From a virus (taxonomy: Duplodnaviria; Caudoviricetes): DNA of 64,000 nt. The position numbers and the translations under genes were made by a program. The notes below the pieces were generated by a model. The model was not told where the DNA came from. It ran no database searches and saw only the letters and a program-made list of their open reading frames with translations. Every line of letters starts with the position of its first letter. Position 1 is the first letter of the stretch. The stretch lies in the IMG/VR virus record IMGVR_UViG_3300017963_000189, one strand, 5' to 3'. Positions 20,754 to 23,426 of this stretch are shown in pieces.

Positions 20754-20933
20754 TATTTATTCCTTTATTTTATATTTCTTTTTCGCCAATTTAAGATTTT
20801 GTGCGGTCGCTTTATCTTTTTCTTCATCACTTGTACAACCATAACATACATCTTCTGACATACCAAAAATAACTAAATTGATTTCTTCACCACACTTTTT
20901 ACATATCATAATTTATTCCTTTATTTTGTGTAG

Positions 20934-21004
20934 TCCGCCCACCGGGAATCGAACCCGAATAAGTGAGTTTAGAAGTCACTGTTCTACCATTGAACTATGG
21001 GCAG
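20934..21004 (-). tRNA. tRNA with CUA anticodon (amber suppressor)
   Basis: GTGAC-TTCTAAA-CTCAC; standard numbering from the D stem puts CTA at 34-36 (C31:C39 mismatch); normal D and T arms. Confidence 0.75.
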
Positions 21005-21016
21005 ATATAAAAGCGG

Positions 21017-21406
21017 TCAACTTGTGACCGCTTCATTTTCTTTTTGAGCCATTATAGGTAAATCTTTGAACATTCTTCCATTTGTATATACAGCAATCGC
21101 TGTAAGTTGGTTATCTAAATCAGGTTCATGAAAAAGTGAAAAAGGTATTTTCTTTCTATCATCATATTGTTTATCATTGATAGATTGTAACTTGTCTTTC
21201 CACTCATTCAATTCATGACTACTTTCAACAGCGAGAAAAATAAGATAACCATTCTTCCACTCGCTCTTCGGATAGTCCATCATAAACTGAGCAACTACAT
21301 GAGCACCCTGAACTGCTTGATATGATGGATCAAATAATTTAATAAAACTATCCGGTTTCTCCATACATCCTAAATCATTACGAGTTAGAACATATAGCCG
21401 TTTCAT
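21017..21406 (-). CDS. Peptidyl-tRNA hydrolase 2 (PTH2)-like protein
   Basis: LYVLTRNDL, QAVQGAHVVA, F.EPDLDNQLTAIA; start re-set to MKRLYV. Confidence 0.75.
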   Translation of the reverse strand: MKRLYVLTRNDLGCMEKPDSFIKLFDPSYQAVQGAHVVAQFMMDYPKSEWKNGYLIFLAVESSHELNEWKDKLQSINDKQYDDRKKIPFSLFHEPDLDNQLTAIAVYTNGRMFKDLPIMAQKENEAVTS

Positions 21407-21704
21407 TATCCACCTTCTGTATAACGGGATACGCATTAAGAAGTTGTTCAATGTAATCTTGATTTGGCTCATTATCGTCTCTTACCGACCTTTCAATTTG
21501 TTCATAACTTTTACCACGTGCCATACAATAAGCAATATGTTGATGTCTAAATTCATATTTCGCTTGTTGTACTTCGTGTCGTTTTTTATTTGATTCTTTT
21601 CTACTTCGTTCTAATTCCTTAAACTCGATCTTGAGTTGTCTGATTTGTTGTGCTAACCCTTTAAGGTAATATTTTCTCGATTTGATATATTCTTTACGTT
21701 CCAT
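21378..21704 (-). CDS. Hypothetical basic protein, overlaps PTH2-like gene
   Basis: AAGGAG SD; RHQHIAYCMARGKSYEQIE. Confidence 0.7.
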   Translation of the reverse strand: MERKEYIKSRKYYLKGLAQQIRQLKIEFKELERSRKESNKKRHEVQQAKYEFRHQHIAYCMARGKSYEQIERSVRDDNEPNQDYIEQLLNAYPVIQKVDNETAICSNS

Positions 21705-21775
21705 TTTAAATCTCCTTTATATTATTGTTTCATTTTTTATGATACATTACCACTTGTTTCAATAAAAATGAAACA

Positions 21776-21829
21776 TTAAGGAGGCTTAAAACTTTTTATC
21801 TACGTAAAGCCCTACGTCCACTTAATCAT
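21776..21829 (-). promoter_or_regulatory. Leader ORF MIKWT*GFT*IKSFKPP with two in-frame TAG codons
   Basis: AGGAG SD; ATG ATT AAG TGG ACG TAG GGC TTT ACG TAG ATA AAA AGT TTT AAG CCT CCT TAA. Confidence 0.6.
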
Positions 21830-21873
21830 TTTGATACTCCTATAAAATATCCATTGATTGATATACATATACT

Positions 21874-21901
21874 TACACTATTGAAAATGATTTTTGTTCC
21901 A
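21874..21901 (-). promoter_or_regulatory. Putative alternative-sigma promoter TGGAAC-N16-AGT
   Basis: Upstream of amber leader; also lies within a possible 45-aa ORF (21826-21963). Confidence 0.4.
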
Positions 21902-21979
21902 AAATCTTCATCCCAACCGTAAGATATGTGTTGACCTATATATTTTTCGTAATTTAATCTCATAACATATATAAATATA

Positions 21980-22123
21980 CTATTTTTTAATTTCCCCTAA
22001 TCCTTTACACTTTGTACACGCTACTTCCATATATACCGGTTGTCCGTCCAATAGGGAAATCGGGACTAATCGTTGTCCCGATCCCTTACAAGTTGGACAT
22101 ATTTCTTTTTTACTTTTCGCCAT
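21980..22123 (-). CDS. Small DnaJ-type zinc-finger protein (47 aa)
   Basis: Read manually: CPTCKGSG ... CTKCKGLG. Confidence 0.65.
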   Translation of the reverse strand: MAKSKKEICPTCKGSGQRLVPISLLDGQPVYMEVACTKCKGLGEIKK

Positions 22124-23426
22124 CAGTCTTTACCTTTTTTGTACGCGGTTTACGCGGTTTTGGTAAATACTTAATTTCATTTATAGAATGAATATGATAA
22201 CGACCCTCATAATCACTTGGATTTGTGGCGACAAGATTATAACTAATACGAACCTTTTTATAATCCGATTGTTTCGTCCTCAATTTGAACTTTTCAGGAA
22301 ATACATCAGAACCGATATAAATTTTTCGTTTCTCGCCATCTATAAAACCATTATGTGATTCATTTTGGAATCTTAAAACTAATTCGCCAACATCTTCATG
22401 TGTTTCAATAAACTCAATAGGCGGACAATGATTACTCACTGTTGATGTGATCATATGCCATACTACATAACAAATCTCACCAATCTTTTTCAATACCCAC
22501 CAAATAGTAGTGAATACAACTCCAATAACACTAAATATAAAACCAAATACCAACCCCACAGGTTTCAAAATAGCAACAATCGTATTGATCCACTTTTCTG
22601 CGGTTTCTTTTCGACGTTCCTCTTTAGCATCAATTTCTTCCTTGTGAGCCTTGTAATATTCGTCTTGTTGTTTCTTGAATTCGGCTTCTTTTTTACGGCG
22701 TTCCGCAAGACGAGCGAACTTTTTGTCTTGTCGTCGTTCTCGTATATTACAAGATTTCTTAATGAGAAAGTTGAAACATCCACGATTGAATAGAAATACA
22801 CCTATACGATATAATACCCAAAATGTGACCACCATACCTAATAAAATAAGTAATCCCATTCCAACTACATATCCTAACATTCCCCATTCAATGGCAACCA
22901 ACCAACCGGCAAGCATTACAAGTAAATCCCATACTACACTTAAAAACCAAAATACTGCCCATAATACCCAATACACAACAAAATATGGAATGGCGAAAAT
23001 AACATGAATACCATAACCTACCCATGCTACTGCATTGTCAAGGAATAATAAAGATATGAAGAATGTTGTAATGAATGCTAACATAGAAATAATTAATGAA
23101 AACGAAAAAGGATTTTCGTCTTTTAATGCTTCGAAATGTTCAGGTAACGATGGTATAACAAGACCTATCAATTTTGTTAGACCATAAATAATATAGGCGA
23201 AAATAAACAAAGGAAAAGTAACTACCATCAAAAGTGATCCCCAAAACATAAATTGGTAAAACGGACACTTATGAGTAACTAACTTTTCGCCCATACCATA
23301 CCAACTTCTCAACCATTGGTAATAACGATACCTGGCATCTGAGACGCCCATCGTAATGGTATCTTCGACACCAAACAACTTTTCGGAAGCGTCTCTTGCT
23401 TTAGATTTTGCTTCCCATTTACTCAT
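22110..23426 (-). CDS. Multi-pass membrane protein
   Basis: At least 7 hydrophobic segments, charged helical linker. Confidence 0.75.
   Translation of the reverse strand: MSKWEAKSKARDASEKLFGVEDTITMGVSDARYRYYQWLRSWYGMGEKLVTHKCPFYQFMFWGSLLMVVTFPLFIFAYIIYGLTKLIGLVIPSLPEHFEALKDENPFSFSLIISMLAFITTFFISLLFLDNAVAWVGYGIHVIFAIPYFVVYWVLWAVFWFLSVVWDLLVMLAGWLVAIEWGMLGYVVGMGLLILLGMVVTFWVLYRIGVFLFNRGCFNFLIKKSCNIRERRQDKKFARLAERRKKEAEFKKQQDEYYKAHKEEIDAKEERRKETAEKWINTIVAILKPVGLVFGFIFSVIGVVFTTIWWVLKKIGEICYVVWHMITSTVSNHCPPIEFIETHEDVGELVLRFQNESHNGFIDGEKRKIYIGSDVFPEKFKLRTKQSDYKKVRISYNLVATNPSDYEGRYHIHSINEIKYLPKPRKPRTKKVKTDGEK

Follow-up and report, generated by a model that had tools for sequence, protein, structure and literature searches.

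A candidate translational attenuator for sensing stop codon suppression beside suppressor tRNAs in huge phages

Introduction

Why should a phage that appears to use the standard genetic code carry a suppressor tRNA, and what could that tRNA have to do with a tiny open reading frame (ORF), lying a few genes upstream, that is interrupted by two of the very stop codons complementary to its anticodon? Both questions are raised by a locus in the tailed-phage record IMGVR_UViG_3300017963_000189 (Caudoviricetes), within a 64,000-nucleotide stretch (referred to here as the window) that belongs to a phage genome of about 309 kb. At this locus, a leader mini-ORF containing two in-frame UAG codons is followed by an ORF of 108 amino acids (ORF108), a gene for a protein with the peptidyl-tRNA hydrolase 2 (PTH2) fold, and a tRNA gene with the anticodon CUA, all on the minus strand, to which the window coordinates given below refer.

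An initial annotation of this DNA had suggested that ribosomes would reach the Pro-Pro-stop end of the leader only when UAG is read through, so that the operon would sense the state of suppression or termination. This core idea is supported by what we found in related loci: the leader is conserved as a peptide, its design is widespread, the stop codon and the tRNA anticodon switch together, and the end of the leader covaries with the downstream ribosome-binding site (RBS). We consider it likely that the cassette acts as a suppression-sensing translational attenuator. The wider problem is a familiar one, as the trigger of the code switch has been called poorly understood in a study of theta ribozymes, which asks "what triggers this switch" (PMC10879173).

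Leader peptide

The leader mini-ORF (21829-21776, with its ATG at 21829-21827) spans 18 codons counting the stop and reads MIKWT-UAG-GFT-UAG-IKSFKPP-UAA, behind a Shine-Dalgarno (SD) sequence AGGAG at 21841-21837 with a 7-nt spacer to the ATG. Its gating UAGs lie at 21814-21812 and 21802-21800, and both are invariant across the window's clade. The leader ends in Lys-Pro-Pro-UAA (21787-21776; Pro codons CCT CCT, TAA at 21778-21776), which is the predicted pause site and also part of the predicted anti-SD strand. These codons, the two TAGs and the SD could be read directly in the window as the initial annotation had described them, as could the ACG that precedes each TAG.

Relatives within the clade were gathered by exact-protein look-up, from IMG/VR and from JGI metagenomes, and in them the leader is kept as a peptide in 11 distinct, diverged versions. 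Examples, with # standing for TAG, are MEFT#GFT#VKSFKPP, MT#GFT#IKSFKPP, MT#GFR#IFKPP, MFEYWLGNYG#GFP#INKPP, ML#GFT#GIIFKPP, MF#GFT#VKKPP, MK#GFK#GRHPP and MKFAYWLGNYG#GFT#VGCRPP. All 11 variants share the core stop-G-F-x-stop-(I/V/G)-x(2-4)-P-P-stop. Positions 1 and 2 are invariant in its Gly, Phe, Pro and Pro codons, and position 3 varies in all four, with all four Pro codons in use. Length differences, in the N-terminal part and in the stretch before Pro-Pro, are confined to whole codons. Even the potential anti-SD string CCUCC is swapped for CCGCC or CCACC, and Pro-Pro stays. Variation restricted to third positions, together with in-frame changes of length, is the signature expected of translation through both UAGs, and the comparison therefore shows a leader that is under selection as a peptide across its stop codons.

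Every clade variant of the leader has an SD-like purine run 5 to 9 nt ahead of its ATG, and the distance from leader stop to ORF108 start is 58 to 96 nt in the variants with a correctly placed start. The ACG before TAG is not kept, being replaced in relatives by ACA, CGG, CCG or AAA. Conservation in other phages, on which the original idea depended, is thus present at the level of the peptide, and because it lies at the amino acid level, the nucleotide motif suggested earlier for finding it (ACGTAG...CCTCCTTAA) would let nearly all of these relatives escape. A small 6-bp hairpin (ACGUAG/UUACGU) is possible between the two ACG-TAG contexts of the window (21817-21802), and it is not kept in relatives.

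A chance ORF was considered as an explanation and ruled out by frequency. A strict definition of the stop-gated mini-ORF ending in Pro-Pro-stop was matched in 31 of 55 non-identical related loci when only the 400-nt target window was scanned (22 kb in total), compared with 3 matches in 604 kb elsewhere in the same loci, counting both strands. This amounts to an enrichment of about 280-fold at the target.

Hairpin at the ORF108 ribosome-binding site

The last codons of the leader are also the start of a long hairpin. Folding placed a stem at 21792-21703 in both the minimum free energy and the centroid structure (-28.5 kcal/mol, z -2.7), its outer helix pairing the final leader codons (GUUUUAAGCCUCCUUA) with the SD of ORF108 and the AU of its start codon, around a variable inner hairpin. 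ORF108 itself (21704-21378) starts 71 nt past the leader stop, with an SD AAGGAG at 21717-21712. The initial annotation had described two alternative hairpins, a choice between which would exert control. An inner hairpin does exist, and the region is better described as one long stem of which those hairpins form the inner part, with a 3' arm that had been misread at one base and should read ATAAAAAATGAAACA. Control would instead be translational, through sequestration of the RBS. No U-run stands behind the stem, which argues for translational control and led us to reject a transcription attenuator.

The same architecture was found in 12 of 12 clade sequences, with differing inner arms, and in 10 of 11 distant ones. 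In some clade sequences, the 5' arm begins just past the leader stop rather than inside the leader, and in distant clades lacking an SD, the leader CCA-UAA pairs with a UUAUGG at the start codon. When the arms of 21 loci were compared, each locus's own 5' and 3' segments paired with a mean of -17.2 kcal/mol, versus -9.6 kcal/mol for swapped segments, and no permutation among 20,000 reached the matched value. Across these loci, then, the comparison shows the leader tail and the downstream RBS covarying as a helix. As in known leader attenuators, a short upstream ORF with its own RBS lies directly ahead of a gene whose RBS is sequestered in structure. Rfam models run at permissive thresholds over 20850-22050 returned the tRNA as the single match.

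Judged by the size of a ribosome footprint, a ribosome terminating at the first UAG should end about 10 nt before the stem, and one at the second UAG should contact at most its first base pairs. A ribosome with the second Pro codon in its P site should cover the entire outer 5' arm.

Related cassettes and suppressor tRNAs

Loci beyond the clade were recovered from IMG/VR with alignment-based queries of the PTH2-like family; ORF108 as the sole query recovered nothing, and the DNA of the locus had no match among 50,697 phage records. Across all loci we counted 43 distinct leaders, each at the equivalent place just ahead of an ORF108-like gene, and all follow one plan: a short N terminus, an in-frame stop, and then either an xPP-stop or an RGPD, RSPG or RASP motif. 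The first class includes MIMR#ITYKPP, MKGFT#VYKPP, ML#VFRPP, MY#ISKPP, MT#VRNVLKPP, ..T#VDINAPP, ..L#VFDILNVPP and ..M#TLLRKLWPP, and the second terminates in IRGPD, IRSPG, GRASP-stop or RGDP-stop. As a side observation, locus L065 carries a tandem duplicate of its leader (..AMTY#VLINAPP-stop, at 2197-2286 and 2375-2455 of that locus) upstream of a single ORF108-like gene.

The gated stop matches the suppressor anticodon encoded downstream at the same locus in 37 of 37 distinct cases, comprising 34 TAG/CUA pairs, 3 TGA/UCA pairs and no mismatches. The TGA leaders are MIMKRI$TRNKGPDNN in L020 and related ones in L030 and L048, loci in which, to judge from their sequences, tRNA and leader have changed together. 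The terminal stop of the leader behaves differently from the gated one: among 24 distinct leaders of the Pro-Pro class, it is never of the gated type (TAA in 19, TGA in 5, TAG in none). A purine directly after a stop codon is a context that favors suppression, and a purine follows the gated stop in 53 of 62 cases.

Suppressor tRNAs accompany the cassette at 56 of the 60 IMG/VR loci that hold a PTH2-like gene, and where found, they share the strand of that gene and follow it at 5 to about 1,600 nt. They belong to several lineages, including types with a long variable arm. Since the tRNA bodies are so diverse, the cassette is linked to suppression and not to one tRNA lineage. Among individual loci, the suppressor tRNAs of L046, L047, L054, L062 and L063 have long variable arms (class II, Ser/Leu/Tyr-like; 86 to 92 nt) and the others are class I; L059, L060 and L064 have a 96-nt UCA tRNA upstream in addition to the CUA tRNA, and L044 also has a UUA tRNA.

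The stop is not always placed in a separate leader. In L047, L054, L057 and L061 (~2560-2650) and in L050/L052 (~2650-2740), leader and ORF108-like gene are joined in one frame, as in MKKISFW#ICDQFW#LKLIRGPDVFLIWMGK... and MK#SIRSP...KTMTTKDLK, and the effect of readthrough there would be an N-terminal extension of the protein, not the opening of a hairpin. Two cultured jumbo phages have the stop in the PTH2-like gene itself, with a tRNA-CUA 2.6 to 3.3 kb away. In Serratia phage BF (L107, NC_041917.1), this gene (~286,090-286,350) has TAG at codon 4 (MTH#NDK) and sits in a stretch without an annotated gene, with the tRNA-CUA at 289,666-289,738. In Tenacibaculum phage pT24 (L109, NC_049383.1), it has TAG at codon 3 (MK#ITK; ~194,120-194,400), a hypothetical gene is annotated there with its called start downstream of the MK#ITK start, and the tRNA-CUA is at 191,520-191,593. 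On their sequences, the fused leaders and both cultured phages are other implementations of the same logic, in which the proteins would be made only upon stop codon readthrough. Taken together, the comparison shows a cassette of leader, helical partner, PTH2-fold gene and suppressor tRNA that many huge phages have kept, whether their code is standard or recoded.

Genetic code

Stop codons inside a leader would mean little if the phage read them as sense codons throughout. The window has 35% G+C, has every gene on the minus strand and encodes 42 tRNAs, only one of which has a CUA anticodon, as had been stated in the initial annotation. TAG ends 15 of its 117 ORFs of at least 60 amino acids and 12 of its 84 ORFs of at least 100 amino acids. 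For code use beyond the window we relied on the closest large relative as a proxy, G001 (IMGVR_UViG_3300032053_000002, 292,723 bp), which has the same double-TAG leader. Under code 11, ORFs cover 86% of this 293-kb genome and 59 of 384 end in TAG; treating TAG as sense adds less ORF coverage than treating TGA as sense, and no region of the genome gains coding coverage from it.

Apart from the leader of the cassette, we found no TAG-interrupted gene in the window or in G001, so neither has the genes broken by an unused stop that mark a recoded phage. Continuations in the same frame after TAG start with their own SD and ATG, the terminase genes of three relatives are uninterrupted by stops, and no other gene gated by an early TAG was found in the window. 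As far as can be seen, the code of the window is standard. With a standard code in both the window and G001, the two UAGs of the leader become exceptional and the cassette self-referential. G001 also has, at 155,123-155,314 on its minus strand, a small ORF behind an SD that begins MK#KKFLNGADTIFIGLALL... and has 60 open codons past the TAG, possibly a second suppressor-gated gene encoding a membrane peptide.

Encoded proteins

The PTH2-fold gene (21406-21017; 129 amino acids, stop at 21019-21017) overlaps ORF108 by 29 nt and is therefore probably translationally coupled to it. Its product begins MKRLY, a start that is invariant among homologues, and homologues of ORF108 lie directly upstream of the PTH2-like gene and overlap it in nearly all loci.

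The AlphaFold2 model of the 129-residue protein has a mean predicted local distance difference test score (pLDDT) of 86. The 15 best Foldseek matches were 14 PTH2 chains and Atu0240, which has a related fold (probability 0.84 to 1.0), and the best 11, all of them PTH2, were at 1.0. VIA-align superposed the model on six PTH2 entries with Z scores of 11.0 to 11.8 (root mean square deviation 2.1 to 2.3 A over 98 to 102 residues), the next unrelated fold reaching Z 2.9. The match to archaeal and human PTH2 structures extends over nearly the whole protein. At the sequence level, 2 of 41 family members touched the PF01981 model (E 0.14), and the family profile found no PTH2 chain among PDB sequences at E values up to 10, giving chance matches only. 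The one functional label came from phrog_3668, "hydrolase" (7e-8). On its model, then, the protein is PTH2-like by fold and outside PF01981 by sequence; the name given to it earlier holds for the structure, and Pfam does not recognize the sequence.

The family is large and unannotated, with 1715 clusters at 50% identity (E of 1e-3 or less), and its invariant or near-invariant residues are R9, D11, Y29, Q33, H36, D96 and T102. The N-terminal RxDL...Q..HA pattern of PTH2 and its later D...T pattern presumably are retained among them. In Stenotrophomonas phage RAS14 (L108, OP752703.1), the PTH2-like domain forms the C-terminal part of a 261-residue protein (88,311-89,096) whose N terminus looks HD-type and which has no in-frame TAG; about 1 kb downstream, the phage encodes a valyl-tRNA synthetase.

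ORF108 is modeled (pLDDT 87) as a helical hairpin of two long antiparallel helices with two additional short helices. Comparison of the model with the PDB by Foldseek, with AlphaFold database clusters and with VIA-align gave no specific relative, only generic helical hairpins at noise level, the best being a designed protein (Z 8.5 over 63 residues). The tRNA-binding arms of SerRS and FemA were considered as relatives and set aside at Z 7.0, indistinguishable from noise. Prediction of a complex between ORF108 and the PTH2-like protein scored 0.00, to which we attach no weight in either direction.

Surrounding sequence

The tRNA (21004-20933) was identified by ARAGORN as a cloverleaf with a stop-complementary anticodon and by Rfam (RF00005, 55.5 bits, E 6e-11). 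It has C1:G72, A73 and a C31:C39 mismatch, and the identity elements C1:G72 and A73 do not point confidently to one amino acid. The PTH2-like gene and the tRNA are separated by 12 nt, one less than previously given, and this gap is partly occupied by a terminator-like hairpin at 21033-21011 (GC-rich, 9 bp, then UUUUAUAU) that ends 6 nt before the tRNA. The stop codon of the PTH2-like gene forms the first three bases of the 3' arm.

Most relatives have a GC-rich hairpin of differing sequence, followed by a T-run, directly upstream of the suppressor tRNA (equivalents were located in L001, L005, L010, L078-L080, L070, L077, L044, L020, L030 and L065), and the PTH2-like stop lies inside the hairpin in the window and in several of these relatives; in some clades the tRNA is non-adjacent. 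From its sequence, the junction hairpin could be a terminator, an attenuator or a structure that protects or stabilizes a 3' end after RNase P cleavage. Because the PTH2-like stop lies within it, translation of that gene could override a terminator, and such an override could couple tRNA synthesis to translation of the gated gene in positive feedback.

Upstream of the leader by about 140 nt is a promoter-like motif, TATATTTATATA (21979-21968). The window contains 18 matches to it with at most one mismatch, where 2.4 would be expected, and its coding strand has 9 exact copies; exact minus-strand sites include 2100, 5027, 16507, 28573, 32735, 52167 and 53482. The motif precedes the leader in L001, L005, L008, L010 and L085 as well, and it is probably a phage promoter element that marks the likely region of the operon's transcript start. 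The sequencing runs in which the locus occurs are two DNA runs (sediment and seawater metagenomes that may be the source), with no RNA run listed, and are silent on expression.

Between motif and leader lies a 45-codon ORF (21963-21826) that ends in a TGA sharing bases with the leader ATG (ATGA). Neither Pfam nor PHROG matched it, and it is not kept as an ORF in relatives. In L005, the equivalent region is intergenic and only the last ~25 nt, including the leader SD, are conserved. This ORF is probably untranslated 5' leader RNA and not a gene. Farther upstream are a 47-residue mini-protein with a DnaJ-type CxxCxGxG zinc finger (21980-22123; PF00684 at E 3e-7, slightly short of the cut-off) and a 438-residue multi-pass membrane protein (22110-23426). 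The two genes occur in the same order in L001 and L005, and L010 keeps the membrane protein gene; the neighborhood is therefore conserved beyond the operon.

Discussion

In the model that we favor, readthrough of a given stop codon would be the signal that turns on expression of a conserved protein pair. A transcript, probably initiated at the TATATTTATATA element, would carry the leader ORF behind its own SD. In the absence of suppression, ribosomes would terminate at the first or the second UAG, both of which lie 5' of the hairpin, and the hairpin would stay closed over the SD and AUG of ORF108, keeping ORF108 and the coupled PTH2-fold gene off. When charged tRNA-CUA beats release factor 1 (RF1) at both UAGs, ribosomes would arrive at the Lys-Pro-Pro-UAA, a presumed slow-terminating end within the 5' arm. 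A ribosome paused there would melt the hairpin and free the ORF108 RBS, allowing both proteins to be made. The use of two UAGs would give a steep response that is insensitive to near-cognate readthrough. Work in other systems makes these steps plausible: polyproline C termini and Pro-Pro before a stop give the poorest termination in Escherichia coli (PMC6412442), a minimal RxPP motif arrests ribosomes (PMC10951233), and doubled UAGs sharpen the discrimination between cognate suppressors and near-cognate tRNAs in engineered switches (PMC6412442). Readthrough by the tRNA-CUA, stalling at the Pro-Pro-stop and the function of the output are the steps that we infer.

What the output would accomplish is harder to say. 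We tentatively suggest that the PTH2-like enzyme and its helical partner hydrolyze tRNA-linked esters that accumulate when stop codons are read through. Candidate substrates would be peptidyl-tRNAs from drop-off or from ribosomes running off the ends of mRNAs, and their removal would keep tRNA pools free. We rank this ester-clearing role first for the output and a deacylase acting in negative feedback second.

Several observations weigh against this attenuator model or against parts of it. The KPP-stop is not a canonical RxPP, a 17-residue peptide may pause a ribosome only briefly, and simple translational coupling without a true arrest would also fit. Because the three TGA/UCA loci are interrelated, the covariation of stop and anticodon may represent one or two events. 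Because a terminator-like hairpin stands between them, the genes and the tRNA may not be cotranscribed, and the C31:C39 mismatch of the tRNA is unusual. On the protein side, the window's PTH2-like protein has no Pfam match and does not reach the PF01981 threshold, and the position that we take to be the catalytic Lys of PTH2 appears as the invariant Tyr of this family, so that the chemistry may differ. Finally, three close relatives, L070-L072 (JGI Ga0307378_10038442 and relatives, ~1130-1500), have no ORF108 frame and no stop-gated leader that we recognized, carrying a different small gene upstream of a PTH2-like protein that is 71% identical and a tRNA-CUA that is kept. Lacking an ORF108 frame, these genomes suggest that the gate is dispensable in some phages.

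Other explanations account for part of this pattern. One accepts the gate and reverses the purpose of the enzyme, which together with ORF108 would hydrolyze the charged or peptidyl suppressor tRNA itself and hold suppression at a low, tolerable set point. The PTH2 fold acts on tRNA esters, as judged from the fold match and from what is known of the family, the tight link between cassette and suppressor tRNA holds across different tRNA bodies, and no gene in the window or in G001 depends on UAG readthrough. As 14 to 15% of ORFs of at least 100 amino acids end in TAG in the window and in G001, unlimited suppression would harm the phage's own proteins. Yet there is no sign of specificity for the suppressor. 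The partner and the enzyme are unchanged between CUA and UCA loci, so that anticodon recognition would have to lie elsewhere, and fully TAG-recoded Lak phages keep the gene where damping seems counterproductive. We regard negative feedback of this kind as unlikely, if still worth considering.

A leader that measures release factor capacity, opening the operon when RF1 is depleted or inhibited and near-cognate host tRNAs read the stop, would relegate the tRNA-CUA to a passenger or an independent tool. UAG readthrough is always a competition between RF1 and a tRNA, and the sequence by itself cannot separate these inputs; the terminator-like hairpin suggests that separate expression of the tRNA is possible, and 4 of 60 loci have no suppressor tRNA within the fetched flank. 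We nevertheless give this account a low probability. The gated stop becomes TGA at precisely the loci that have a UCA tRNA, the 37 distinct cases include no mismatch, two serial UAGs strongly disfavor near-cognate readthrough (PMC6412442), and TAG and TGA lineages would need separate inhibitors of RF1 and RF2, yet their proteins form one family. A further alternative is an ordinary five-codon upstream ORF ending at the first TAG, with the remainder serving as RNA structure or a protein-binding site. A conserved RNA structure does form in the region, and the small hairpin between the two ACGTAG contexts is possible, but such an ORF does not explain why four conserved codons past the first TAG vary at third positions only, with all four Pro codons in use, why indels preserve the frame, or why CCUCC becomes CCGCC or CCACC with Pro-Pro kept. 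Distant clades, moreover, retain an xPP-stop in unrelated nucleotides, and the ACGUAG hairpin is unconserved; we consider this explanation very improbable. Most improbable of all is that TAG is simply a sense codon in this phage and the leader a small gene in that code. The suppressor tRNA and the PTH2-like homologues in TAG-recoded Lak megaphages would be in keeping with it. It conflicts with the use of TAG to terminate 12 of the window's 84 ORFs of at least 100 amino acids and 59 of 384 in G001, with the lower gain in ORF coverage for TAG-as-sense than for TGA-as-sense, with an SD and ATG of its own at every long continuation, and with terminases of three relatives free of internal stops.

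A bolder extension of the attenuator model, which we consider improbable and offer mainly as speculation, would make the cassette a self-referential, bistable code switch and a stepping stone to stop codon reassignment in phages. A little suppressor tRNA would let ribosomes past the leader and on through ORF108 and the PTH2-like gene, and ribosomes at the stop within the terminator hairpin would melt that hairpin, producing more tRNA and thus positive feedback. The PTH2-fold enzyme and its partner would meanwhile remodel termination, for example through removal of peptidyl-tRNAs or through action on ribosomes held up at the suppressed stop, and in this way would make cell-wide readthrough tolerable. 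If this were true, standard-code carriers would be preadapted to shift their late genes into a recoded alphabet.

Whatever the output proves to be, the cassette offers a testable answer to the questions of how a phage senses a working code change and what suppressor tRNAs do in standard-code phages. It links to translation termination a large unannotated family of about 1,700 clusters at 50% identity, along with a second uncharacterized family, and it would extend arrest-peptide regulation to a new input. It may also account for unannotated gaps in the genomes of cultured jumbo phages such as Serratia phage BF. As a natural mirror of designs for genetic code expansion, its doubled UAG, purine after the stop, Pro-Pro-stop and RBS hairpin could be reused as compact reporters of suppression.

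Relation to known systems

No published account of a natural leader gated by a stop codon, or of a tie between PTH2-like genes and suppressor tRNAs, came up in a literature search that covered few subscription journals. Some resemblance exists to the bar minigenes of phage lambda, ORFs of two to three codons that provoke drop-off of peptidyl-tRNA and are lethal to hosts in which Pth is limiting: very short ORFs occur here too (MT-stop in L005 and L008), tied to peptidyl-tRNA hydrolase biology. Unlike bar minigenes, the leader has a conserved readthrough peptide, gates a downstream gene and is linked to a suppressor tRNA. The PTH2 hydrolases (PF01981; 3erj, 1xty and 1q7s, Bit1) share the fold of the cassette's enzyme, the sequence of which lies below Pfam and PDB HMM thresholds. 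Unlike the PTH2 of archaea and eukaryotes, the phage gene has a helical-hairpin partner gene and occurs beside suppressor tRNAs.

The code-change modules of recoded phages, in which a suppressor tRNA is combined with a release factor or aminoacyl-tRNA synthetase (crAss-like and Lak phages), likewise rely on a phage-encoded suppressor tRNA, with suppression proposed to time expression, and both Lak phages and the huge phages LR7565xx have members of the PTH2-like family. In surveying recoded phages, Borges et al. (bioRxiv 10.1101/2021.08.26.457843) make no mention of a hydrolase, a leader or an attenuator. Unlike those modules, the cassette sits in phages that are not recoded, at least in the window and the 293-kb relative, and it is the sole UAG-dependent unit that we found there.

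The closest natural parallels are the arrest-peptide leaders of SecM-secA, MifM-yidC2, ApdA/ApdP/ApcA with RAPP/RAPG, ermC and cat. They too are short upstream ORFs with their own SD and a Pro-rich C-terminal motif, here KPP-stop and in relatives RHPP, RPP, NAPP, WPP, IRGPD, IRSPG or GRASP, and the predicted stall site likewise falls in the hairpin strand that masks SD and AUG of the following gene (PMC10951233, PMC7897499). Where those leaders respond to secretion, membrane insertion or an antibiotic, the input here would be stop codon readthrough, the peptide is far shorter (17 residues), and the predicted pause occurs at the stop after Pro-Pro, not at an elongation step. The same logic has been built by hand in engineered amber leader switches, in which a UAG in the tna or trp leader makes the output depend on charged tRNA-CUA and in which UAGs have been multiplexed (PMC6412442). 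Those are synthetic devices that work at the level of transcription, by Rho-dependent or attenuator control, whereas the phage cassette is natural, widespread and apparently translational, and it controls genes beside the suppressor tRNA itself. We therefore place it with leader-peptide attenuators of the SecM/MifM/RAPP/erm kind, having as its proposed input a suppressor readthrough event that, to our knowledge, had previously been used only in synthetic devices.

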